Assembly (NCBI GenBank): GCA_013141115.1
Contig: JABFRP010000002.1
Location: 834,389 to 898,388 of the forward strand
Reading direction: 5' to 3'
Length of the DNA: 64,000 nucleotides
Source of the DNA: Ferruginibacter sp.
Lineage (GTDB): Bacteria > Bacteroidota > Bacteroidia > Chitinophagales > Chitinophagaceae
This document shows positions 3,951 to 59,280 of the stretch, piece by piece. The notes under the pieces were generated by a model. It saw only the letters and a program-made list of their open reading frames with translations. It did not search any database and was not told the DNA's origin. The position numbers were made by a program, and so were the translations under genes. Numbering within the stretch: the first letter of the stretch is position 1; the number at the start of each line of letters is the position of its first letter.

Positions 3951-4718
3951 TTACAGGTCTTTACGGTTAAATTTTCTCAGCGATAACCAGGTGGGAATTA
4001 CGATCCACAGGGTTAATACTAAAAAAGATAGCAGCACACCGGTTTGTGTGCCAAAAAAGTTTTTAAATATGGCGCCGGTATAACCCATTAGTGCCGATAC
4101 ATCCATTTTTAGTAATATTAAAATACGGCTAAGATCTATGGGGTTTAACGTACTTACCCCCACCATTATTTTTTCCATGGGATAATCGGCAAATTGAAAT
4201 AATACAAATAATACCAGCCCATCAAATAATAACGAAAAATATAACCATAGTAAAATGGCTACACCAATACCTTTGGCTTTGTCTCTTGTTATAACAGCGG
4301 CCAGCATGGCTATGGCTACAAAAATTACAGATAATAGTAACCCCGTGCCCAGCATCATAAAACCTGTTGCTGTGGCTTCATATAATAAAATAGGAATACC
4401 TGCACCCACAAAAAAGGCAATGGCCAGCGAAGATGCTAAACCGGAGAAAACACTTAGCCAGATCGTTTTTCTTTTTAGTGGCTGGCTTACCAGTAACTCT
4501 AAAAACTCGGCACTGTTATACACATAAATGGCCGAAAACATAATACTTACCAATGGCACAATTATTAAAATGATGTTGAGCAAACTCAGTAAGCCTTTGG
4601 CCGAATTATCTTCCAGGTTAAAAACACTTAATGAAATTAACAGCAAAAACAAGGTGTAGGCCAGCATAATTTTATTACGCAGGATATCTATAATAACGTA
4701 TTTGATAATTTTTTTCAT
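3951..4718 (-). CDS. nosY: ABC-2 type permease NosY
   Basis: 255 aa, about 6 TM segments, immediately downstream of nosF and nosD. Confidence 0.8.
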   Translation of the reverse strand: MKKIIKYVIIDILRNKIMLAYTLFLLLISLSVFNLEDNSAKGLLSLLNIILIIVPLVSIMFSAIYVYNSAEFLELLVSQPLKRKTIWLSVFSGLASSLAIAFFVGAGIPILLYEATATGFMMLGTGLLLSVIFVAIAMLAAVITRDKAKGIGVAILLWLYFSLLFDGLVLFVLFQFADYPMEKIMVGVSTLNPIDLSRILILLKMDVSALMGYTGAIFKNFFGTQTGVLLSFLVLTLWIVIPTWLSLRKFNRKDL

Positions 4719-17765: not shown

Positions 17766-17879
17766 AATAAACTATAAAAATATTTGCCTGTAAGAAAAAG
17801 TATAGTGCTGAAAAGGTGAGCCGGCAATTTTGCGGCGAAACCATCAGTACCATTACTTTTCTCCCGAAAGCGTTGTTAC

Positions 17880-18030
17880 TAAAATTGATTGTTGGCAGGT
17901 CTTCTGACTTACTCCGTTGTTTAATGCCTTCCCGTCAAATACAACAGTGGCTTGAAGTTTAAACAATTTAAAGGAGCTTACAGCTACGGGGATAGTTTCC
18001 GTTTTTCACGGGATTCCCTTTTAATTCCAT
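17880..18030 (-). promoter_or_regulatory. cobalamin riboswitch in the nrdBA leader
   Basis: The minus strand reads AAAAGGGAATCCCGTGAAAAACGGAAACTATCCCCGTAGCTGTAAGC...GCCACTG...GGGAAGGC...AGTAAGTCAGAAGACCTGCCAAC (B12 box). Confidence 0.85.
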
Positions 18031-18325
18031 TTCAATTGTTGCTAAAACGAAAACCAAAATCTGGTTGCAAAATAAAGGAGAAAATTATGTTTGTATTAAT
18101 TTGTTATGCACCAAATGTGAGAAACCTTTTACAGAAATTAAGAAAGATTTTTTAAGGGCTGAAAATGTGAGTGAATCACCCCAAAAGGGTGGCTCACTTA
18201 ACTCACAAAGGATTTAAAAATAAGGTAAGCCGTTCTTTTGGGTGCCCTTTTATCAAAAAGGAGTGAGCCTCCCTTTTAAGGTGACCCACTCCAGCTAAAA
18301 CATATTCTTTAATAAAATTATTTAA

Positions 18326-20263: not shown

Positions 20264-20394
20264 TTTTTTGAAAAATTTTTTTTGTTGTGACTGCTTCCGT
20301 GGAAAATTTGTGGTTGGTGCTTACACCAAACACGGCGAAATATAAATGCCTTACAGCTTTTACACTCCATGCCTTTCACCCGAAAGCTTTGAAT

Positions 20395-20550
20395 GATTGT
20401 TAATTGATGTGGCAGGTCTTCTGGCTTACTCCCTGTTTGTTGCCTTCCCGTCAATTTAAAAACAGTGGCTTGAAGAACAAACAGTTTACAGAGTTTACAG
20501 CTACGGGGATAGCTCCCGATTTTAACGGGATTCCCTTTTAATACCGATTT
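20395..20550 (-). promoter_or_regulatory. cobalamin riboswitch in the TonB-receptor leader
   Basis: The minus strand reads AAAAGGGAATCCCGTTAAAATCGGGAGCTATCCCCGTAGCTGTAAAC...GCCACTG...GGGAAGGC...AGTAAGCCAGAAGACCTGCCAC (B12 box). It is a near paralog of the element at 17880. Confidence 0.85.
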
Positions 20551-20681
20551 GACATCGGCAACCAAATCTGCTGCAAATATAGGGGGTTTGATTTTTATTG
20601 TTTCAATAATTATCTACGTAATGTAGAGAAATAAAAAAGCCAATCAAAAATGATTGGCTTTAAAATAAATTACCTGTTTTG

Positions 20682-42247: not shown

Positions 42248-43696
42248 TCACTCTCCCACCACTTCCTCTTTCCGCTTCCTGAATTTTTTTGGATCGCTTC
42301 CATCCATCTGTACAATGGCCGGATAAAATTTACCCAACACATCCACCAACGTTGTCTGACTTTGCATCACTTCATTAATATCCTTGTAGGCAAATGGTGC
42401 TTCATCCAAGCCACCGCCAATTAATTTTACACCATGAGATGCCAATTCTTTTTTTAATGCTTCTTGTGTGATGTTAGCCAACGCTTTGGTACGACTCATT
42501 TTTCTTCCTGCACCGTGAGAAGCAGAATTTAAAGAAGCCATTTCGCCTTTACCTTTTACAATAAAGCCCGGTGCCGTCATAGAGCCAGGAATGATTCCTA
42601 ATACATCTTTACCTGCAGGTGTGGCACCTTTACGATGCACAATTACTTCGTTACCATTATACATTTCTTTCCATGCAAAGTTGTGGTGATTCTCTACCAC
42701 TGCCAATGGTTTTTCTCCAATAGCTTTTGCAATTTTTGCATGTATGGTGTGGTGACAGGCACTTGCATAATCACCTGCTAAATTCATGGCCAACCAATAT
42801 TCCATTCCTTCTTCCGTATCTAAATCCAGCCATGCCAAATGTTTGGCTTCTTTTGGCAACACCGTTTTTTGCATCGCAATTTGTGTGTAGTGGTTAGCAA
42901 TGTTGGCGCCTAATCCACGGCTTCCGCTATGGCTTAACAGTCCAACATAATTACCCACTGCCAAACCCATTGAATTTGTTGCATCCGTAATTTCAACTTT
43001 ACCAAATTCTACAAAATGGTTACCGCTACCGGAAGTACCTAATTGCTTTAATGCTTTATGTTGCAATGGTTGTAAAAAAGCAATGTCGTTGAATTCAGTT
43101 CTGTCCAATACTTCATGCTCTGTTCTTTCTGTAAACTCTCTTCCTGCACCAAACAAAGTATTGGCCACTAATTCTCTTTGAAAGTTAGCTTGTCTTTTTT
43201 TCAACTCATCAGGGTTGATGGCGAAAATGCTTAAACACATTCTGCAACCAATATCAACACCAACCGCATAAGGAATAATGGCATTGTTTGTTGCCAGCAC
43301 ACCACCGATTGGTAAACCATAACCCTGGTGTGCATCGGGCATTAATGCACCAGCAACAGCCACAGGTAATTTTGCGGCAATTTTCATTTGTGCCAATGCG
43401 CCTTCTTCAATATGCTTTGCACCAAAGACATTATAATCCACTCCCTTTTCATTCAACGGAATTTCTATTGCTTCAGCTTCTTCCACTACAATTAATTTTT
43501 CTGCTATCTTCCCCAACACTTCATCTGCCAAATAATTTTCTGGTGCAGCTAATACATCTTTCAATATCTGTAATGCTTCTTCTTCAGTTGAATGTTTAAA
43601 GTGCGTACACATGGTATGCATCGCCACACTTACCACCGGCCCTTCTTCGTAGCCAATAGCACGGATCTGTTTTCCTGTTAATTTTAATTTGCTCAT
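42248..43696 (-). CDS. rtcB: RtcB family RNA 3'-phosphate/5'-OH ligase
   Basis: 482 aa with RtcB motifs GSGNHFVEFG, HRKGAT and SASHGAGR, plus a ~60 aa N-terminal extension. Confidence 0.95.
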   Translation of the reverse strand: MSKLKLTGKQIRAIGYEEGPVVSVAMHTMCTHFKHSTEEEALQILKDVLAAPENYLADEVLGKIAEKLIVVEEAEAIEIPLNEKGVDYNVFGAKHIEEGALAQMKIAAKLPVAVAGALMPDAHQGYGLPIGGVLATNNAIIPYAVGVDIGCRMCLSIFAINPDELKKRQANFQRELVANTLFGAGREFTERTEHEVLDRTEFNDIAFLQPLQHKALKQLGTSGSGNHFVEFGKVEITDATNSMGLAVGNYVGLLSHSGSRGLGANIANHYTQIAMQKTVLPKEAKHLAWLDLDTEEGMEYWLAMNLAGDYASACHHTIHAKIAKAIGEKPLAVVENHHNFAWKEMYNGNEVIVHRKGATPAGKDVLGIIPGSMTAPGFIVKGKGEMASLNSASHGAGRKMSRTKALANITQEALKKELASHGVKLIGGGLDEAPFAYKDINEVMQSQTTLVDVLGKFYPAIVQMDGSDPKKFRKRKEEVVGE

Positions 43697-49245: not shown

Positions 49246-50349
49246 CTATTTCTGCACCACAAATATCTGTTTCAACTGTTCTATCAATGAACCATTACCA
49301 CTTACGCTGATCTCACCAATTTTGTCGGCAATTTTTTCAACGTATTCCATCTCTTTCAATTTCCACAACATGGTATTGTCTTCCATTAATTTGGCAGTGT
49401 TTAACAAACTACGGGTGCTGGCGGTTTCTTCACGCCGCATGATGCTGTTGGCCTGTGCATTTTTTTCTGCCACCAACACTTTGTTCATGATGTCTTTTAC
49501 ATCGCCTGGCAAAATGATATCCCGGATACCGAAACCATTTACTGCAACACCTAAATCTTCGGCAGTATTTTTTATTGCTTCCAAAATAAATGGCACAATG
49601 GTATCTTTTTTCTCCAGCAATTCGTCAAAGCCCAAACCACCAATGTACTCCCGCAATGCCAACTGAAAAGCCACATACAACTGCCGTTCGTAATCTTTGT
49701 TTTGCAACAACGCTTTTTCAATATCGGCCACTTTGTACTGGGCATAACCGTTGATACGCAATGCAGCTTTGTCTTTGGTCAAAATTTCCTGACCGTTGAT
49801 TTCTATTTGCTGCATACGGGTATCGGCTTTACCCACTACAATGGTGATGCTGTTTTTCCACCAGTAGTAAATACCGGCTGGCAATATTTGTGCATACTTT
49901 CCATCAATGAACAAGATGGCTTGCTCATAGTTTTCTACAGTGTAGCTACGCACATAAGGCGCTACCAATTTGTTTTGCAATACGGCACGGCTGATGTTTT
50001 CAGTAATGTCTATTTTGCTGATATCTGCTTTAATAAATTCGTAGTTGTTGACTACGTTTTTCCAAAAAGCATAACGGCCTGCAGTTAATACCTGCTTTAA
50101 CAAACCATCCTGGTACTGCAACACTATTTCATTATCACTTACTTCAATTACCTGCAAGGCGTTGGCTAATGCAGTATCCTGCAATAAAATGTTTAATTCT
50201 GTAGCGGCATAAAATGGTTTGGTTACATCATGTATCATCACGGTTTCATTAAACCACAACCAATAGTTCCCTTCAGTCAACATTTTTTTGTACTCGCCAT
50301 TTTTAAATACCAATGCTATTTGGTAGGCGTTGATTTTTACTTGTTTCAT
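49246..50349 (-). CDS. SPFH/Band-7 (slipin family) protein without a TM anchor
   Basis: 367 aa with a C-terminal SPFH core (GIRDIILPGDVKDIMNKVLVAEKNAQAN). The N-terminus has three repeats of G.Y...L..G.Y..W.N. Confidence 0.85.
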   Translation of the reverse strand: MKQVKINAYQIALVFKNGEYKKMLTEGNYWLWFNETVMIHDVTKPFYAATELNILLQDTALANALQVIEVSDNEIVLQYQDGLLKQVLTAGRYAFWKNVVNNYEFIKADISKIDITENISRAVLQNKLVAPYVRSYTVENYEQAILFIDGKYAQILPAGIYYWWKNSITIVVGKADTRMQQIEINGQEILTKDKAALRINGYAQYKVADIEKALLQNKDYERQLYVAFQLALREYIGGLGFDELLEKKDTIVPFILEAIKNTAEDLGVAVNGFGIRDIILPGDVKDIMNKVLVAEKNAQANSIMRREETASTRSLLNTAKLMEDNTMLWKLKEMEYVEKIADKIGEISVSGNGSLIEQLKQIFVVQK

Positions 50350-50648: not shown

Positions 50649-50720
50649 TTTTTTAAGAAGCGGTGTACTTCTTTACGCTACATTAACGGTGTAGTGCTCT
50701 ACCAATTGAGCTATCCGAGC
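50649..50720 (-). ncRNA. tRNA-like element A (Asn-GTT-like 5' two-thirds, aberrant 3' part)
   Basis: The minus strand reads GCTCGGA-TA-GCTCAATTGGTAGAGC-A-CTACA-CCGTTAA-TGTAG, then AGAAG-TACACCG-CTTCT. No 3' strand complementary to GCTCGGA is present. Confidence 0.5.
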
Positions 50721-50786
50721 TGGATTTCGGAAAGGGATTCGAACCCTAACAATTGTTGTTGCTCTAACCAACTGAGCTATCCTGTT
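50721..50786 (-). ncRNA. tRNA-like element B (D arm, T arm and encoded T-CCA tail, mini anticodon arm)
   Basis: The minus strand reads AACAGGA-TA-GCTCAGTTGGTTAGAGC-(AACAA-CAA-TTGTT)-AGGG-TTCGAAT-CCCT-TCCGAAA-T-CCA. The 5' and 3' acceptor strands pair at only 3 of 7 positions. Confidence 0.5.
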
Positions 50787-50787
50787 T

Positions 50788-50812
50788 TACCAGGAGAAGG
50801 ACTTGAACCTTC
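50788..50812 (-). ncRNA. tRNA-like element C (isolated T arm plus 3' acceptor strand)
   Basis: GAAGG-TTCAAGT-CCTTC-TCCTGGT-A on the minus strand. I could not fold a D or anticodon arm upstream of it. Confidence 0.35.
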
Positions 50813-51005
50813 GACACACAACGTGATGGCTGGCGTACCTTACAGCAACAATAGCATACAGATAGTTACTACGTCTGCACTGTTGTGTTTTAAAACACTA
50901 ACCTGGTTTGCTTTCTGAAGGTGTATACCAGTCTTGCTGTTAAGCAAGCTTTTGAATTGAATTTTTACTTCAACAATATTTTAAAGAACTTCTTGTTTTA
51001 CTTTG

Positions 51006-53148: not shown

Positions 53149-54231
53149 TTAATTCATCGTCACTTCCTGCCGTCTAAACCCAAACACTTCCGTTCTTTCA
53201 ATTACATTATCTTTTTCATCGGGGTTGGCAATTTCTGCTATGGTCATAGGCTTTGTAATGCTATTGCTAAAACCTAAGTGATCCGATAAGCGTTGCGATT
53301 TTGTTGTACTCAACTTTCCAAATTCATATTTTGCAATTAACCTGCCTTTACGCATCAGTGCACTATCTACCAGTGTAAGCGAATTATTAAAAGTGCAGAT
53401 CAGTTGTACATTTAAAAAATCGGCCAGCAACCCATCGGAAATGTTCAATAAATTAGATACCGATGCATTGCCATTTAATTTTCTATCCATAATTATATTT
53501 TCTGCATCTTCAATGATCAGCACACTGTTGGGATTGCTCACCAGCAACTCAATAAAATCGGGGCTGGTAATATCCGCTGCTACATTGGGAGACACAAACA
53601 ACACCCGCTTTTTAATTTTACCAATAAGGTAACGCAGGTAAGTGGTTTTGCCTGTGCCGGGTAAACCGTGCAGTAATACAATGCCTTTGTCTTTATCTTT
53701 TGTAAGCCGCTTGCAAATGGTATCACTCACTGCTTTAAAATCATCTTCATAAAAAAGATCCAGGCTAAGCTTAGTACGTTTTACTTCCAGTTGCTTTAAC
53801 TCCAGCCCGTTTCGGCCACGGCTGATGAGGTTTATCTCTAACGGCTTTCTGCGCTGCTTCTCTTTAAACTGTTTCATCAGGTTAGTACAGTCGTTTATAA
53901 AATCTTCCTGCATCCCGCTGTGATATATTTCGCAGTAATTGGTATCAAACTCTATTACACATCCGTTTTTCATGATCATAAATGTTTCATCAAAAACGTA
54001 GCGTTTTTTCTTACTGTCGTAATAGCGGTAACCATGCTGCGACTCTATCAAATGCCCAAACTTGTCTTTGATAGCAGCAAATGCTTTTTCCCCATCAATA
54101 TTGTTGATATAGTTAGCACTGGGTATTTGCCCAAAGCAATACAGGTATAATGATTTGCCACTTAAAAATCCATTATCAAAAATGCTGTTGGCATTGATCA
54201 TTTTTTGATTGGTAGTATTTTCCATTTTCAT
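53149..54231 (-). CDS. AAA+ ATPase (classic AAA clade) with an N-terminal domain of unknown function
   Basis: 360 aa with Walker A GLPGTGKT and Walker B LIIEDAEN. Confidence 0.8.
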   Translation of the reverse strand: MKMENTTNQKMINANSIFDNGFLSGKSLYLYCFGQIPSANYINNIDGEKAFAAIKDKFGHLIESQHGYRYYDSKKKRYVFDETFMIMKNGCVIEFDTNYCEIYHSGMQEDFINDCTNLMKQFKEKQRRKPLEINLISRGRNGLELKQLEVKRTKLSLDLFYEDDFKAVSDTICKRLTKDKDKGIVLLHGLPGTGKTTYLRYLIGKIKKRVLFVSPNVAADITSPDFIELLVSNPNSVLIIEDAENIIMDRKLNGNASVSNLLNISDGLLADFLNVQLICTFNNSLTLVDSALMRKGRLIAKYEFGKLSTTKSQRLSDHLGFSNSITKPMTIAEIANPDEKDNVIERTEVFGFRRQEVTMN

Positions 54232-54358
54232 TATTTTTAAGCTGCTAAAATCTCTACTTCAAAAATTACTAGCGGCTTGTTTTTTAATTCTTGTTAATTT
54301 ACATACTGCTTAAAGTCCCCGGAATTTATCCCGATTTTTTCGGGAGGGGATTTAGGGG

Positions 54359-54844
54359 CTAATGCACAATTTTATTAGCGCAACTGCTGCTTGCAAAAGC
54401 ATCCGGCTTGGCTTTAAAAGCAAAGCCCATCCCCATGATATATCCCATGGCTTCTTTCAAAGCATCATTACTTTTAAAATTAGGATTGGTATTAATATCC
54501 ACATGCACTTCCATATCCACACTGTAGCGGCTAAAAATATTGCACAGCGTATACGCTACTTCAACACTCTTCGCTACTTCCACTAACATCCGTTGTTTGA
54601 TACTCATTTTTTGCAAAGTAGTTTCGTTGCAGATATACATAAACCCTCCTTTACCCTTACGTATAAAAACAATTACGGTAGCAAATTCAGTTTCCTTTCC
54701 TTTTACCTGGCTATCGGTACCAATACACACTTTCAGTTCATGGCCCATTGCTCTTTCTCTTTCAATAGTTACCTTTACTTCATCCTCAATAGGAATGCGT
54801 ATTTTTTCACCGTTTAATTTTCTCCATTGCTGTTGCTGTTCCAT
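54359..54844 (-). CDS. YkuK/DUF458 family RNase H-like protein
   Basis: 161 aa with the motif CIGTDSQVKGKETEFATVIVFIRKGKGGF, matching the IGTDSQ...TAIV..R.GKG pattern I recall for YkuK. Confidence 0.7.
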   Translation of the reverse strand: MEQQQQWRKLNGEKIRIPIEDEVKVTIERERAMGHELKVCIGTDSQVKGKETEFATVIVFIRKGKGGFMYICNETTLQKMSIKQRMLVEVAKSVEVAYTLCNIFSRYSVDMEVHVDINTNPNFKSNDALKEAMGYIMGMGFAFKAKPDAFASSSCANKIVH

Positions 54845-54973
54845 TTTTTTAAAGTTTTCTTAATGCCCTTCGGGACATTAATTTTTATTAGCGAACTTTT
54901 GTTCCCTGATGAAGCGACATTGGCAGAGTTTATCCTGACAAAGGAAGGACTCCATTCAACATTTTTTCTTTAA

Positions 54974-55720
54974 TCATCTTTTCCCAGCCTTTATTGAATC
55001 AAGTATTTGAATCAATGATTTGTTTTTAAATTCATTTGCTTCATTATACTTTTCAAACTCTTTATAATACCTGTGCTTGTAATGCCCATGCACCAACCGG
55101 GATTGCTTTTTCCGTAAATCTTTTCGCTCCAGGTAATTGTCCAATAATTTCATCTTCGATTCCAGCTCGGCATCTTTTATCCTTACCTTATCAATCATAT
55201 TGGGCTTTATTTTTAACACATATCTCCAAACTTCAATAAACTCATACCGCTTAATGGGTTGTTTTTTCCAATCCAATTCCCACACTTCTCTAAAAAATTG
55301 TTTTTCAGATTCGTTGAAATCCATTTTTAAAGATTGGTATTCGTAAGGCCTTAAAAGATGTTGTGGTTTTACAACATAAATTTTTCGCCCCCGTTTCCGC
55401 TTCTTTCTTTTAAAGTCTTTTTTCCAGTGGTACTCGTAAGTATTTATTTTTTTTAAAATCGTTTCAAAAAAAATCCCATGCCTGCTCCTTGCCACATCCT
55501 CCCTTACTACAAAAAACCTAACCCATCCTTTTTGTATCGGCGGATGCAATGGCTCCCACCCCAAATTTCTTTGTTGCAGATACAATGCATTTTCTTCTTT
55601 ATGCAATTGTATCAGTTGCTTATCAAAATCTTTATACCGCAGTCTTTTCTTTTGCCTTGCAGTACGTAAACGGTAACAGAGCATATCTTCTCCGTACTGT
55701 TGAATAAGTTTTGTGTCCAT
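54974..55720 (-). CDS. highly basic hypothetical protein
   Basis: 248 aa, K/R/W/Y-rich (KKDFKRKKRKRGRK). It is the first CDS downstream of the tRNA array on the same strand. Confidence 0.55.
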   Translation of the reverse strand: MDTKLIQQYGEDMLCYRLRTARQKKRLRYKDFDKQLIQLHKEENALYLQQRNLGWEPLHPPIQKGWVRFFVVREDVARSRHGIFFETILKKINTYEYHWKKDFKRKKRKRGRKIYVVKPQHLLRPYEYQSLKMDFNESEKQFFREVWELDWKKQPIKRYEFIEVWRYVLKIKPNMIDKVRIKDAELESKMKLLDNYLERKDLRKKQSRLVHGHYKHRYYKEFEKYNEANEFKNKSLIQILDSIKAGKR

Positions 55721-55843
55721 AATGTTTTATTTTGTTTCGATCGAAAACTCCTGTGCCATTGCAGCAGGTGTGTTATTTGTTTCATTATGAACCGTGTTAC
55801 TTTTTTCATTACTTCTTTTTTAAGTTGTATAAATTTATTTTTG

Positions 55844-55914
55844 CATCAATACAAGGATTCGAACCCTGACAGATAGTGTTGGAAGCTATCATGCTACCTT
55901 TACATCATACTGAT
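55844..55914 (-). tRNA. tRNA-Trp(CCA)
   Basis: Manual fold: acceptor ATCAGTA/TATTGAT, T arm CAGGG-TTCGAAT-CCTTG, anticodon arm ATAGC-TTCCAAC-ACTAT with one C-A mismatch. Confidence 0.7.
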
Positions 55915-55925
55915 AATTTTTATTG

Positions 55926-55996
55926 CGGACGAAGCAAGACTCGAACTTGCACTACCAGCTCTTCAAACAGGCACTCTACCGTTGAGTTATTCGTCC
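55926..55996 (-). tRNA. tRNA-Phe(GAA)
   Basis: Acceptor GGACGAA/TTCGTCC, T arm GCAAG-TTCGAGT-CTTGC, anticodon loop TTGAAGA. The anticodon stem has one U-U mismatch. Confidence 0.75.
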
Positions 55997-55999
55997 AGT

Positions 56000-56067
56000 T
56001 TGTTTGCAACAGGCTTGTTGATTGATCTATATTTCCTCATCGTCGAATTCACCTGTTATCAAACAAT
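56000..56067. repeat. hairpin spacer element 1 inside the tRNA array
   Basis: The arms tgtttgcaacagg (56001-56013) and cctgttatcaaaca (56052-56066) pair. It shares its terminal sequence with the element at 56569. Confidence 0.5.
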
Positions 56068-56077
56068 TTCTTTATTG

Positions 56078-56151
56078 AGTCCTGCAGAGGACTCGAACCT
56101 CCTTCTTTCGATTTGCAGTCGAATGCATACGACCATGTCTGCCAGCAGGAC
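56078..56151 (-). tRNA. tRNA-Cys(GCA)
   Basis: Acceptor GTCCTGC/GCAGGAC, T arm GGAGG-TTCGAGT-CCTCT, anticodon arm TTCGA-CTGCAAA-TCGAA. Confidence 0.8.
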
Positions 56152-56156
56152 ATTTG

Positions 56157-56240
56157 CGGAGAGTAAAGGATTCGAACCTTTGCACCGAATAAACGATGAT
56201 GGCTTAGCGGGCCACTACAATACCACTCTGTCAACTCTCC
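56157..56240 (-). tRNA. tRNA-Ser(GCT), type II, with C at position 33
   Basis: Acceptor GGAGAGT/ACTCTCC, T arm AAAGG-TTCGAAT-CCTTT, a long variable arm, and anticodon arm GTGGC-CCGCTAA-GCCAT. Confidence 0.7.
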
Positions 56241-56252
56241 TAAATATTTTTG

Positions 56253-56340
56253 CGGAGAGAAAGAGATTCGAACTCTTGATCCGCCAAATGGCGGACAGTA
56301 TGTTTTCAAGACAGCATCCATGACCATCCGGACTCTCTCC
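56253..56340 (-). tRNA. tRNA-Ser(TGA), type II, with a weak anticodon stem
   Basis: Acceptor GGAGAGA/TCTCTCC, T arm AAGAG-TTCGAAT-CTCTT, variable arm CCGCC-ATTT-GGCGG, and loop CTTGAAA closed by only 3 Watson-Crick pairs. Confidence 0.65.
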
Positions 56341-56345
56341 AATTG

Positions 56346-56485
56346 TGTGAGTGGATGGATTACTCACTTCACATTTATTTAATTTTTGTGTTCATGTATT
56401 CCGCTTCGCTCCATTTCGAACCATCTAAGTCTTTTGAACAGCAGATTTACAGTCTGCTACGAATCGCCGTCTTCGTCGCACTCAC
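56346..56485 (-). tRNA. tRNA-Tyr(GTA)-like gene with a 55-nt insertion in the T-loop (possibly a pseudogene)
   Basis: Acceptor GTGAGTG/CACTCAC, D arm ACGA-N10-TCGT, anticodon arm GCAGA-CTGTAAA-TCTGC. The T stem GATGG (56421-56425) pairs with CCATC (56354-56358) and encloses TTCGAA plus 55 nt (56360-56414) plus T. Confidence 0.5.
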
Positions 56486-56492
56486 ATTTTTG

Positions 56493-56564
56493 AGGATGAA
56501 AAAAGATTCGAACTTTTAACCCTCCCGCTAACAACGGGACGCTCTGCCATTGAGCTATTCATCG
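56493..56564 (-). tRNA. tRNA-Asn(GTT)
   Basis: Acceptor CGATGAA/TTCATCC (C1 x C72 mismatch), T arm AAAAG-TTCGAAT-CTTTT, anticodon arm TCCCG-TTGTTAG-CGGGA. Confidence 0.75.
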
Positions 56565-56568
56565 ATTA

Positions 56569-56671
56569 TTTGTTTGACCAGGGATTTTTAAAGATTGATG
56601 GGATTAAAAAAATTATAGCATCCATAATCTTTTTAATCATTTTCATCCACCCAAATCCCAGTTCAAACAAA
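56569..56671. repeat. 103-nt hairpin spacer element 2 inside the tRNA array
   Basis: The arms tttgtttgaccagggattt and aaatcccagttcaaacaaa pair at 17 of 19 positions. There is further inner pairing (gattaaaaa/tttttaatc). Confidence 0.55.
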
Positions 56672-56674
56672 CTG

Positions 56675-56748
56675 TAGTTCCGGTGAGACTCGAACTCACA
56701 ACCACCGAATTAAAAGTTCGGTGCATCTAACCATTGAGCTACGAAACT
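56675..56748 (-). tRNA. tRNA-Lys(TTT)
   Basis: Acceptor AGTTTCG/CGGAACT, T arm GTGAG-TTCGAGT-CTCAC, anticodon arm CCGAA-CTTTTAA-TTCGG. The D stem is weakened by an extra T. Confidence 0.75.
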
Positions 56749-56755
56749 ATTTTTG

Positions 56756-56828
56756 TGATGACTAAAGGACTCGAACCTTTAACCACTACCGTATCAGGAT
56801 AGCACTCTGCCAATTGAGTTAAGTCATC
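56756..56828 (-). tRNA. tRNA-Ile(GAT)
   Basis: Acceptor GATGACT/AGTCATC, T arm AAAGG-TTCGAGT-CCTTT, anticodon arm CTATC-CTGATAC-GGTAG. Confidence 0.8.
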
Positions 56829-56832
56829 TTTG

Positions 56833-56904
56833 TTGCGACCGCAAGATTCGAACTTGCATCTTCTGGCTTATGAGACCAGTATGTTACCATTACACCAAGT
56901 CACA
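56833..56904 (-). tRNA. tRNA-Met(CAT) (elongator Met or lysidine-dependent Ile2, undecided)
   Basis: Acceptor TGTGACT/GGTCGCA (2 G-U pairs), T arm GCAAG-TTCGAAT-CTTGC, anticodon arm CTGGT-CTCATAA-GCCAG. It lacks the initiator GGG/CCC stem. Confidence 0.75.
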
Positions 56905-56918
56905 ATTTTATTTTTTTG

Positions 56919-56991
56919 TTGACTTAATTGGATTCGAACCAATAACCTTTTGCGTATAAGGCAACTGCTCTCACCGTTAAGCTATAAGTCA
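56919..56991 (-). tRNA. tRNA-Ile(TAT)
   Basis: Acceptor TGACTTA/TAAGTCA, T arm ATTGG-TTCGAAT-CCAAT, anticodon loop CTTATAC. Confidence 0.7.
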
Positions 56992-56997
56992 ATTTAG

Positions 56998-57070
56998 TTG
57001 GTCTAACAAGATTCGAACTTGTATCCCCACGTTCGTAGCGTAGTATTCTCATCCGTTGAACTATAGACCA
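56998..57070 (-). tRNA. tRNA-Arg(ACG)
   Basis: Acceptor TGGTCTA/TAGACCA, T arm ACAAG-TTCGAAT-CTTGT, anticodon arm CTACG-CTACGAA-CGTGG. Confidence 0.8.
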
Positions 57071-57074
57071 ATTT

Positions 57075-57168
57075 GTGCGGCTTCCGGATTTGAACCGGAT
57101 ACGACCCTCTTATGTTTACCTCTTAGAAAAAGAGGAAGACGATCATGTTACCATTACACTCAACCGCA
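57075..57168 (-). tRNA. atypical 94-nt tRNA-like gene (anticodon assignment ambiguous; the best hairpin gives TTC)
   Basis: Acceptor TGCGGTT/AGCCGCA, D arm GTGT-AATGGTA-ACAT, T arm TCCGG-TTCAAAT-CCGGA. The 44-nt central region holds the hairpin CCTCT-TTTTCTA-AGAGG plus a second AAGAGG copy. Confidence 0.45.
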
Positions 57169-57170
57169 TT

Positions 57171-57243
57171 GGTTGACTTCGGGTCTCGAACCCTGTTCCC
57201 CACATTCACAGTGTGGTACTTTACCAGTTAAGCTAAAGCCAAC
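57171..57243 (-). tRNA. tRNA-His(GTG)
   Basis: Acceptor GTTGGCT/AGTCAAC, anticodon arm CCACA-CTGTGAA-TGTGG. The T arm CAGGG-TTCGAGA-CCCGA is imperfect. Confidence 0.7.
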
Positions 57244-57253
57244 ATTTAATAAG

Positions 57254-57325
57254 TGCAGCATGAGTGATTCGAACACTCTCCTCCGATTTGGAAGACCGGC
57301 ACGCCGCCATCAACGCATATACTGC
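57254..57325 (-). tRNA. tRNA-Gly(TCC)
   Basis: Acceptor GCAGTAT/ATGCTGC, T arm GAGTG-TTCGAAT-CACTC, anticodon arm CCGGT-CTTCCAA-ATCGG. Confidence 0.8.
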
Positions 57326-57335
57326 AATTTTTTTG

Positions 57336-57406
57336 TTATCGAGGATAGATTCGAACTATCAACTTCAGAGTCAAATTCTGAAATGTTGCCATTACACCAC
57401 TCGATA
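57336..57406 (-). tRNA. tRNA-Gln(TTG)
   Basis: Acceptor TATCGAG/CTCGATA, T arm GATAG-TTCGAAT-CTATC, anticodon arm TCAGA-ATTTGAC-TCTGA. Confidence 0.8.
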
Positions 57407-57416
57407 ATTTTTTTTG

Positions 57417-57488
57417 CGGTTCGTATGAGAATCGAACTCATAGCTTCTGATAGACAATCAGAAATGTTAGCCGTTACACTAACGAACC
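57417..57488 (-). tRNA. tRNA-Asp(GTC) with U at position 37
   Basis: Acceptor GGTTCGT/ACGAACC, T arm ATGAG-TTCGATT-CTCAT, anticodon arm TCTGA-TTGTCTA-TCAGA. Confidence 0.75.
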
Positions 57489-57543
57489 GTTATAGTGGAG
57501 TACTGACTGAAGCAATACTGCACACTATGTTTCAAAGGGCTTG

Positions 57544-57616
57544 CAGTCTGTACCGGATTCGAACCGGTATTGTCAAGTAGAAAGCTTGATATCCTGAACC
57601 ATTAGATCAACAGACC
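57544..57616 (-). tRNA. tRNA-Glu(TTC) with U at position 37
   Basis: Acceptor GGTCTGT/ACAGACT, T arm ACCGG-TTCGAAT-CCGGT, anticodon arm TCAAG-CTTTCTA-CTTGA. Confidence 0.75.
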
Positions 57617-57622
57617 ATTTTG

Positions 57623-57695
57623 TATAGTAGGCAAGATTCGAACTTGCAGCCTCTCCGGTCCAGGCGGAGTATCCAACCAATTGGAATGCTACTAT
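57623..57695 (-). tRNA. tRNA-Pro(TGG) with C at position 33
   Basis: Acceptor ATAGTAG/CTACTAT, T arm GCAAG-TTCGAAT-CTTGC, anticodon arm CTCCG-CCTGGAC-CGGAG. Confidence 0.7.
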
Positions 57696-57720
57696 GTTTA
57701 AAAAATAATCAAAGAACTTT

Positions 57721-57757
57721 TTAAAAAGCTTCCCCGTTGCATCTCACGGGGAAAGCT
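57721..57757 (-). terminator. rho-independent terminator just upstream of the tRNA array
   Basis: agcttccccg-N10-cggggaaagct, with a T-run on the minus strand. Confidence 0.6.
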
Positions 57758-57779
57758 TTATTCCTCCTTCTGCATCTGA

Positions 57780-57860
57780 TTATTTTATACGCCTTTTTAT
57801 CTTATTGAAAATGGCTTCTGCAAATGCCTGCATCAACCATACTACTATTAAAAATGTCAT
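57780..57860 (-). CDS. possible 26-aa hydrophobic/basic micro-protein
   Basis: Own translation: MTFLIVVWLMQAFAEAIFNKIKRRIK. It is followed by the terminator at 57721-57757. No homology evidence. Confidence 0.25.
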   Translation of the reverse strand: MTFLIVVWLMQAFAEAIFNKIKRRIK

Positions 57861-57880
57861 ACGCTGTTTTTTTTAAATAC

Positions 57881-57976
57881 TTAATACTTACGGTTTCTTT
57901 TTTCTACTTTACCTGCATACGCCACCAACAAGTGTATTATAATCAGCAAAAATTTTAGCATGTGCAATGTTTCCAT
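57881..57976 (-). CDS. possible 31-aa hydrophobic/basic micro-protein
   Basis: Own translation: METLHMLKFLLIIIHLLVAYAGKVEKRNRKY. It is preceded by AAAGGAGGGTAAA, a strong SD-like site that is rare elsewhere in this window. Confidence 0.3.
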   Translation of the reverse strand: METLHMLKFLLIIIHLLVAYAGKVEKRNRKY

Positions 57977-58013
57977 TTTACCCTCCTTTTATTTTTGGGC
58001 CATTGCTAAAAAC

Positions 58014-58051
58014 AAAAAGCCCGGTCGTTTTTTAGTACGACCGGGCTTTTT
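58014..58051. terminator. bidirectional terminator
   Basis: An A-run, then gcccggtcg-N10-cgaccgggc, then a T-run. Confidence 0.65.
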
Positions 58052-58068
58052 ACTCAACAAGTTTTTTA

Positions 58069-58218
58069 TTACTCATTTACCTTACACGGTCGTGTTATAT
58101 TTTTATCAATCGATGCATTACTAAACAGCACAGCATGGCCTATCGGCATAATAGTACTATACCAGTTGATCGACATACTTCGGTTTGCTATTTGTTGTTT
58201 ACAATTTTGTTGATGCAT
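58069..58218 (-). CDS. possible 49-aa small protein
   Basis: Own translation: MHQQNCKQQIANRSMSINWYSTIMPIGHAVLFSNASIDKNITRPCKVNE. It is followed by the terminator at 58014-58051. Confidence 0.2.
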   Translation of the reverse strand: MHQQNCKQQIANRSMSINWYSTIMPIGHAVLFSNASIDKNITRPCKVNE

Positions 58219-58296
58219 TTTTATTTTTTAGTTTACAATTTTATTTATGTCATTAACCTTCGCTACTTCCATTTATTACAGTTCAACACAGTGGCA

Positions 58297-58326
58297 ACAA
58301 AAAACCCCGCTGATTCAGGCGGGGCT
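58297..58326 (-). terminator. rho-independent terminator
   Basis: ccccgc-N8-gcgggg, with a T-run on the minus strand. Confidence 0.6.
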
Positions 58327-58353
58327 TAGGTTATAGCGAATTAGTTTTGATAC

Positions 58354-58446
58354 TTATTCATCAGCATAACATGCCCCGCAACTGGTGTAATCCCCTTTTG
58401 GACTAAACCAATTCATCGCTTCAATATGTAGTTGTATGCGTAACAT
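58354..58446 (-). CDS. possible 30-aa Cys-containing peptide
   Basis: Own translation: MLRIQLHIEAMNWFSPKGDYTSCGACYADE. It is followed by the terminator at 58297-58326 and lies downstream of the two-component system. Confidence 0.2.
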   Translation of the reverse strand: MLRIQLHIEAMNWFSPKGDYTSCGACYADE

Positions 58447-58614
58447 GTTTTGTTGTTGTTAAATTTTATTTGCACTGCAAAGATGAATTTATTTTTGATA
58501 CTGCCAAATATTTTTCAAAAAAAAAGTAAAAATATTTTTACAGCCGTCATCATTACAAATCATTTTCTCCAATGAAAACAAGTAAAAAAATAACAGGAAA
58601 TTATTTTTAAAAAA

Positions 58615-59280
58615 TTATTGCAAGGGCATATACAAATGTTCCCGTATGGCATAAACGATAATGCCGGCAGTATTTTTTACGTTCATTTTTTCAATAATTT
58701 TTAAACGCAGGCCTTCTACCGTTCTTACACTTAAAAATATTTTTTCGCCAATTTCTTTACTGGTTAATCCTTCGCAGATGTAGTGTATAATTTCTTTTTC
58801 CCGCTCATTAAAATCTGCTTTCTGCGTTTTCAGTTGCAGGTTAAACCTGCTTTTAGCTACCATACCCGCCAGTTTTTTTGAAGTAAGACGGCAGTAGTGC
58901 GACTCGTTATCAGCAACAGTATGCACTGCTTCAATTATTTCAGTTTTGTCGGCATTTTTTAACAGATAGCCTTTGGCTCCTGCCTCAAGCATATCAATAA
59001 TAAGATCTTCTTCATCAAACATAGTTAATGCAATAATACCAATAGAAGGATAATACATCGTAAGGTGTTTGGTAGCAGTAACACCATCAAGATTGGGCAT
59101 TTTTACATCCGTTATCACCACATCAGGTAAATGTTGCTTTACCAGCTCTATCAATTCTTTTCCATCGCCTGCCTCGCCTGCAACAATAATATCAGGCTGC
59201 TTTTGTAACATCAGTTTTAAACCATCTCTAAAAATTTCATGGTCGTCGGCAATAATAACCTTAATGGTCTTTATACTCAT
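58615..59280 (-). CDS. LuxR/NarL-family response regulator
   Basis: 221 aa with a receiver domain (IIADDH, DVVITDVKMP) and a C-terminal LuxR HTH (REKEIIHYICEGLTSKEIGEKIFLSVRTVE). Confidence 0.9.
   Translation of the reverse strand: MSIKTIKVIIADDHEIFRDGLKLMLQKQPDIIVAGEAGDGKELIELVKQHLPDVVITDVKMPNLDGVTATKHLTMYYPSIGIIALTMFDEEDLIIDMLEAGAKGYLLKNADKTEIIEAVHTVADNESHYCRLTSKKLAGMVAKSRFNLQLKTQKADFNEREKEIIHYICEGLTSKEIGEKIFLSVRTVEGLRLKIIEKMNVKNTAGIIVYAIREHLYMPLQ

Follow-up and report, generated by a model that had tools for sequence, protein, structure and literature searches.

A strain-specific 55-nt insertion in the T-loop of a tRNA-Tyr gene within a long tRNA array of Ferruginibacter

A tRNA-Tyr(GUA) gene on the minus strand of a Ferruginibacter sp. 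contig, at positions 56346-56485 of the 64-kb stretch of DNA that we analysed (the window), carries exactly 55 nt (56360-56414) inside its T-loop. We consider it probable (roughly 0.8) that this is a young, strain-specific insertion that disabled a dispensable member of a long tRNA array, making the gene a pseudogene rather than the carrier of a bacterial tRNA intron. An earlier note, made from the letters alone, had described canonical tRNA-Tyr parts around a 55-nt T-loop insertion, a description that the sequence itself, ARAGORN after deletion of the insert and an alignment of orthologues all bear out; it had offered as explanations either a pseudogene made by partial tandem duplication and deletion or an intervening sequence that needs cleavage and RtcB-type ligation.

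The interrupted gene and its orthologues

The gene falls into three parts:

56415..56485, minus strand: 5' part, nucleotides 1-59, from the acceptor 5' strand to TTCGAA of the T-loop (sequence, ARAGORN on the spliced form, alignment with six orthologues)
56360..56414, minus strand: 55-nt insert in the T-loop, 33% G+C, edge ambiguous by 2 nt (55-column alignment gap, no second copy, no Rfam match, weak fold)
56346..56359, minus strand: 3' part, with T60, T-stem CCATC, acceptor CACTCAC and discriminator A (sequence, ARAGORN on the spliced form, orthologue alignment)

Read from 56485 to 56346, the gene opens with the acceptor 5' strand GTGAGTG and CG, and continues through the D arm (ACGA-AGACGGCGAT-TCGT, then A), the anticodon arm (GCAGA-CTGTAAA-TCTGC) and a 15-nt variable region to the T-stem 5' strand GATGG and TTCGAA; the 55 nt follow (56414 to 56360), and then T, CCATC, CACTCAC and A. 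AA stands on both sides of the junction, placing the insertion after nucleotide 57, 58 or 59. Neither ARAGORN nor Rfam recognised a tRNA in the intact stretch; deleting the 55 nt in silico led ARAGORN to call an 85-nt tRNA-Tyr(gta) with a short variable arm. The insert-free form has the makeup of a class II tRNA-Tyr(GUA), with a cloverleaf, a 7-bp acceptor stem, a D arm, a GUA anticodon arm and a long variable region; what the gene as it stands lacks is a contiguous 7-nt T-loop on a 5-bp T-stem, the loop being split by the 55 nt.

The insertion is precise: every tRNA nucleotide is kept, all four stems are fully Watson-Crick, and the exons have no private change at the 43 positions that are invariant in six orthologues, while 79 of 85 positions are identical to the orthologue of Ferruginibacter sp. 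SUN106 (locus L007). Exons this flawless mean either that the insertion is very recent or that they are still constrained. The same 140 nt, letter for letter, were present in the Logan assemblies L002 (SRR11748965) and L004 (SRR11487819), which with the window makes three independent assemblies; the insertion is therefore not an assembly artefact.

For comparison with relatives we used as an anchor a neighbouring gene for a 248-aa protein, which is suitable because a tRNA array directly precedes its homologues to as little as about 45-50% identity, and we sought Tyr orthologues over 90 related loci with an HMM of Tyr sequences. An uninterrupted Tyr orthologue of 85-87 nt was found in six lineages (L007, L008/L009, L011/L012, L027, L029 and L032), in the first three of which it occupies the same place in the gene order, between Asn and Ser genes. 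When the interrupted gene was aligned with all six (alignment A2), the result was one clean 55-column gap with flanks aligned end to end, which chance does not explain, and the six orthologues all share the sequence across the junction, TTCGAA followed by T. Covariation of the T-stem from lineage to lineage (GATGG/CCATC, GGTGG/CCACT, GCTGG/CCAGC and ATAAG/CTTAT) shows the Tyr family to be a real tRNA; judging from the orthologues, C at position 8 is a trait of this family and not a sign of decay.

Elsewhere the same gene has been cut short or lost. In L031 (1587-1634) it is truncated after about nucleotide 48 and fused to Phe, and eight arrays lack it, among them L005 and L006, the relatives nearest to this strain (84-86% identical in the anchor protein). 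From L005, and apparently from L006 too, Tyr and Ser(UGA) seem to have been lost together, between similar 3' ends of Asn and Ser(UGA). The 55-nt insertion was seen in this strain only, and an uninterrupted Tyr gene at the same position in relatives is the outcome that had been named beforehand as refuting the intron idea: rather than being retained in orthologues, the insert faces six uninterrupted genes and others truncated or deleted. One point counts against the pseudogene reading here, namely that among these loci we found no relative close enough to date the insertion or to test conservation of the insert; the contigs for P0003, P0006 and P0008 stop about 620 nt upstream of the anchor gene, just before the Tyr position.

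The insert and its origin

The insert is poorer in G+C than the exons (33% against 47%), folds alone to only -2.3 kcal/mol and is predicted to be unstructured; the whole 140-nt gene folds no better than its shuffles (z = -1.5). Partition-function calculations put the base-pair probability of the T-stem at 0.97-0.99 without the insert and at 0.004 or less with it, while the acceptor stem of the insert-bearing gene is still predicted to form (p = 0.99). The T-loop insertion is, in other words, a lineage-specific lesion that abolishes the predicted T-arm. We found no second copy of the insert in the window, allowing up to 3 mismatches, or in the 90 related loci, and no match to an intron, ribozyme or other family at E <= 1 in an Rfam scan of 54000-59000. 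Exact-pattern scans of viral contigs with the Tyr 5' half, the insert and the T-loop palindrome gave no match, and a scan of the insert for promoters and terminators showed none. Pairings of insert segments with flanking tRNA parts that the earlier note had pointed out (TGTTCA with TGAACA, GTGAGT with ACTCAC) are present.

The account that we favour is that a supernumerary tRNA-Tyr(GUA) of the array gained a 55-bp A+T-rich insertion after nucleotides 57-59 in this strain's lineage, presumably in a DNA-level event such as illegitimate recombination or a template-switch insertion with 2-nt (AA) microhomology, in which the 5' junction of the gene itself may have supplied the last ~20 nt. Predictions for the transcript retain the acceptor stem and lose the T-arm; it would therefore be without the tRNA elbow needed by RNase P, CCA addition, aminoacylation, EF-Tu and the ribosome. 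From these predictions we infer that the product is most likely non-functional. Its loss would be tolerated because the array tRNAs are redundant, and related arrays have many times deleted or truncated their Tyr gene. RtcB and the repair enzymes nearby would then act in mending tRNAs, a role that has been suggested for other long tRNA arrays, and not in removing the insert. Counted against this account are the pristine exons and the precision of the insertion, as well as an RNA-repair island beside the array whose HEPN-domain protein and RtcB might, in principle, cleave and religate RNA.

Another form of the pseudogene reading, distinct from ours in origin alone and in our view possible but unlikely, has the Tyr gene duplicated in tandem, after which copy 1 lost its 3' end and copy 2 its interior. 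It draws on the last ~20 nt of the insert, which resemble an A-rich spacer followed by GTGAGT, that is, the 5' junction of the Tyr gene; against the orthologous junctions of L007, L008 and L027 this likeness was matched by 4-16 of 500 shuffles, which is nominally significant, whereas against the gene's own 5' flank, where the earlier note had seen it, 42 of 500 shuffles scored equally well, which is not. For the first ~35 nt no counterpart was found in the array or the related loci, and a single insertion explains the perfect tRNA more parsimoniously than two independent deletions that happen to leave one. Of the earlier note's first explanation, then, a pseudogene by local rearrangement stands in outline, given the strain-specific insertion, the uninterrupted, truncated or deleted orthologues, a damaged Ser(UGA) neighbour and the indels described below; the duplication-plus-deletion route is weakly supported, by the last ~20 nt.

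The array, its indels and its other RNAs

The interrupted gene is part of an array of 19 tRNA genes and one tRNA-like gene (element X), all on one strand within 1.85 kb, in the order Pro, Glu, Asp, Gln, Gly, His, X, Arg, Ile(UAU), Met, Ile(GAU), Lys, a 109-nt hairpin, Asn, the interrupted Tyr, Ser(UGA), Ser(GCU), Cys, an 80-nt element, Phe and Trp. The features that bear on its interpretation are:

55843..57695, minus strand: long tRNA array containing the interrupted Tyr gene (ARAGORN, Rfam, syntenic arrays in relatives)
56253..56341, minus strand: tRNA-Ser(UGA) adjoining the interrupted gene, probably degenerate (alignment A4, ARAGORN, Rfam)
57074-57168, minus strand: element X, a tRNA-like gene of ~94 nt between His and Arg (comparison with the array tRNA-Met, covariation)
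56565-56673, minus strand: Lys-Asn spacer with a long hairpin of 109 nt, -39 kcal/mol, termini GTTTGTTTGAAC...GGTCAAACAAA
55997-56076, minus strand: pre-Phe spacer of 80 nt that holds an element of ~65 nt, conserved in at least 10 arrays
L005:4561-4578 and 4616-4633, L006:4883 and 5427, L015:799, L017:1288, L018:216 and 500, L022:99: sites of 18-nt palindromes in related arrays

An L-array has many closely spaced tRNA genes on one strand, about 20 or more, that cover most amino acids; this array fits that description, and genes for RNA processing and repair such as rtcB lie within 14 kb of it. L-arrays occur in several phyla, including Bacteroidetes, in neighbourhoods enriched in RNA-processing genes, with rtcB a documented neighbour; they change by frequent insertions, duplications and deletions and contain pseudogenes (3 of 26 genes in Anabaena; PMC8421152). 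The trn operon of Anabaena PCC 7120 (Santamaria-Gomez et al. 2021, PMC8421152) shares with the window a long, supernumerary, same-strand array with frequent indels and pseudogenes and, as for L-arrays in general, repair-gene neighbours that include rtcB; unlike that operon, the window array is a syntenic chromosomal locus across Chitinophagaceae and is not megaplasmid-borne. A disrupted gene in an L-array is, as such, an already known sort of thing. The repeated loss of Tyr and other genes from related arrays indirectly supports the view that the array tRNA genes are supernumerary to the housekeeping set. We know of no precise loop insertion in an L-array whose removal leaves a perfect tRNA. 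BLAST of the array against phage genomes returned generic tRNA matches only.

The neighbour of the interrupted gene is damaged as well. Compared with its orthologues in L007, L008 and L032, the window Ser(UGA) contains four extra nucleotides, TACT (56297-56300), in the 3' strand of its anticodon stem; ARAGORN does not call it, even with TACT removed, and its sole Rfam match is a tRNA-Sec below threshold. Probably this gene too is decaying; it lies in the segment deleted from L005 and L006.

The tRNA genes of related arrays bear at least 12 further insertions or replacements. Perfect palindromes of 18 nt (TCCCGATAGCTATCGGGA or TCCCGAAAGCTTTCGGGA) replace D-loops, T-loops or anticodon-stem strands in Gln, Asn, Arg, Ile, Lys-like and Phe genes, and the T-loop copies always lie directly after TTC (GTTC). 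All 10 copies found sit inside arrays, with none in the window, and identical palindromes occur in species whose neighbouring proteins are just ~58-86% identical; their appearance is that of a tiny palindromic insertion element or of a gene-conversion product. The Ser(UGA) gene of L007 (L007:3366-3474) has a 20-nt insertion with a CUCC-UUCG-GGAG hairpin just before the T-stem, and an Asn gene (L093:40-59, also in L092) has a GC-rich imperfect palindrome of 20 nt, CCTGTCTGCCGGCAGGCAGG, precisely between C56 and G57, the rest of the gene being intact. With the latter, the array family has two precise T-loop insertions, which differ in gene, lineage and sequence, and the centre of the TTCGAA palindrome appears to be a hot spot for indels. 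A generic search for T-loop-interrupted tRNAs, over loci that excluded L092/L093 with this second precise insertion, gave 63 matches against 25-42 in shuffles; three of these were the interrupted Tyr gene itself (window, L002 and L004) and the remainder A+T-rich noise.

To judge from the arrays compared, small DNA-level insertions in tRNA loops are common in this family, each lineage-specific and each different in sequence. The cyanobacterial SDR/STRR repeats, reportedly very small palindromic mobile repeats in structural RNA genes, offer a likeness in that the 18-nt palindromes and the 20-nt hairpin are likewise short DNA-level insertions in T-, D- and anticodon loops of related arrays; the 55-nt insert differs from them in being neither palindromic nor repeated.

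Element X, missed by both ARAGORN and Rfam, resembles the array tRNA-Met in its acceptor stem, D arm and T arm. Its anticodon region is an 8-bp stem around a 6-bp hairpin and a near-invariant UAAACAU; the anticodon-loop insertion amounts to 21-22 nt, consisting of the 6-bp hairpin and then UAAA, right before CAU, and removal of 21 nt would leave a loop UUCAUAA with the anticodon CAU. The element is kept in 10 arrays, in an alignment in which 95% of cells are paired and 13 pairs have changed on both sides, a value reached by 0 of 500 shuffles. Its conservation means that interrupted tRNA-like genes can persist in the array, which counts against the pseudogene reading of the interrupted Tyr gene. 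In-silico deletions in element X yielded tRNA calls with several different anticodons, and no splice register is therefore fixed; neither the conservation of element X nor the flawless exons of the Tyr gene is positive evidence that the latter is processed.

Two further array RNAs are not tRNAs. A hairpin of ~100 nt comparable to that of the Lys-Asn spacer is found at the same position in L007, L008, L011 and L018, and the pre-Phe element, with a terminal stem TTGTTTGATAACAGG/CCTGTTGCAAACAA and a core GAATTCGAnGATGAGGAAA...GATCAATCA, may be another small RNA from the array transcript. Because the array also encodes these conserved structured RNAs and element X, we weighed the idea that the insert is kept in the mature product, giving a tRNA-like RNA with an extra arm at the elbow and a role outside translation within an RNA-repair or defence island. 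Such an RNA might, for instance, be bound by a repair protein, or act as a decoy or sponge for RNases that attack tRNAs. A sponge role has been proposed for array tRNAs (PMC8421152), and placing the insert between nucleotides 59 and 60, which is one valid reading of the junction, leaves T54-A58 contiguous. We nevertheless think this improbable, since the insert shows neither conservation nor a predicted fold, formation of the T-arm is not predicted and relatives simply delete the gene.

The RNA-repair island and the case for splicing

Downstream of the array lies an RNA-repair island, of which two parts matter here:

53149-55720, minus strand: gene trio immediately downstream of the array, encoding the 248-aa protein, an RNaseH-like protein (PF04308) and an AAA ATPase
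42248..43696, minus strand: RtcB-family RNA ligase (Pfam PF01139, E = 5e-84), at the far end of the island, which reaches the array

The RtcB ligase that the earlier note had placed in the locus is thus indeed encoded there, 12.6 kb from the interrupted gene. Next to the array the island comprises the trio and a WYL regulator, and it continues with genes for Band_7/SPFH, HEPN_AbiV, two RlaP nucleotidyltransferases, an Rv2179c-like 3'-5' exoribonuclease, DUF6169 and RtcB. The trio was seen in every relative whose flanking genes were inspected (L007, L008/L009, L091 and L092, plus the P0008 gene table), followed by the WYL regulator in the window, L007 and L008; trio and array may form a functional module. 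The 248-aa protein is basic and has an AlphaFold model with a pLDDT of 79.5; it matched no Pfam or NCBIfam family and no PDB sequence, and Foldseek found no match in the PDB.

Upstream of the Band_7 gene (49246-50349), tRNA-like fragments occur at 50650-50900 on the minus strand (GGATAGCTCAGTTGGTTAGAGC...GGGTTCGAATCCC and a second, GGATAGCTCAATTGGTAGAGC), one of them a partial Rfam tRNA match of 29.6 bits; they recall an SPFH/Band-7-associated tRNA-like RNA that has reportedly been proposed. Two cobalamin riboswitches (17877-18073 and 20394-20581, both on the minus strand; Rfam 101 and 115 bits) adjoin TonB-dependent receptor genes elsewhere in the window and are ordinary.

Repair genes also stand beside arrays whose Tyr gene is intact, with an RNA ligase (PF09414) in L007 and Ro60/TROVE in L008. 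The association of repair genes with arrays is therefore independent of the insertion, and the presence of RtcB is no evidence for splicing. The association fits repair of RNase-damaged tRNAs, a HEPN-domain protein being encoded in the same island; HEPN domains are commonly RNases. In Anabaena, rtcB is not adjacent to the trn operon, yet it is induced by the same stimuli (PMC8421152).

That brings us to the earlier note's second explanation, under which a protein endonuclease would remove the insert from the transcript and the island RtcB would join the halves, amounting to protein-dependent tRNA splicing at a T-loop site in a bacterium. We found no positive support for it and rate it as very improbable. 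The known parallel is the non-canonical tRNA introns of archaea and of Cyanidioschyzon merolae, which are cut by a splicing endonuclease and joined by RtcB. Archaeal examples do occur in the T-loop, which counts for the idea, and the locus shares with those systems an intervening sequence in the T-loop, a canonical tRNA restored by its removal and an encoded RtcB-family ligase. Precise insertion and undamaged exons, the presence of RtcB, a HEPN-domain protein and an RNaseH-like protein in one island, and an RNA ligase in relatives can be cited in the same direction.

The hallmarks of such introns were absent, however. Inspection of the junctions revealed no bulge-helix-bulge, or relaxed HBh', across the splice sites: the only junction pairing is between ATGG of the insert and CCAT of the 3' exon, beside a 6-nt rather than a 3-nt bulge and with no intron-intron helix. 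Non-canonical introns of archaea usually are much smaller, most of them below about 50 nt, and have structured junctions; folding predicts no structure for this insert, and no intron or ribozyme family of Rfam matches it. A scan of about 40 ORFs of the 64-kb window turned up no splicing-endonuclease domain of the EndA family. The host is bacterial, the insert occurs in one strain alone with six orthologues uninterrupted, and repair genes accompany arrays without any interrupted Tyr. It is likewise highly doubtful that the insertion-bearing Tyr RNA and the Met-like element X are both cut and religated, by the HEPN or RNaseH-like nuclease of the island together with RtcB or an RNA ligase.

Nor does the insert resemble a self-splicing intron. 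Group I introns are the bacterial intervening sequences known from tRNA-type loops, lying in tRNA anticodon loops and in the T-loop of tmRNA genes, where they average 293-414 nt and have canonical group I stems (PMC11915505). Against a P1-P9 core and a length of roughly at least 200 nt, the insert offers 55 nt that fold weakly and have no Rfam Intron_gpI match. As for an assembly or sequencing artefact, nothing speaks for it except the oddity of the structure, and the three concordant assemblies already refute it.

A short protein-spliced intron in a bacterial tRNA, if true, would overturn the textbook confinement of such introns to archaea and eukaryotes. The comparative evidence indicates that the interrupted Tyr gene is not such an intron and is instead a recent strain-specific lesion in a dispensable array gene. 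What the locus does show is that long tRNA arrays, fused to an RNA-repair island, are conserved on the chromosomes of Chitinophagaceae, that these arrays change through rapid indels and through small hairpins inserted at tRNA loops, and that they carry at least one conserved tRNA-like RNA with a hairpin in its anticodon loop, element X, which is a more interesting by-product of this analysis than the Tyr gene itself.
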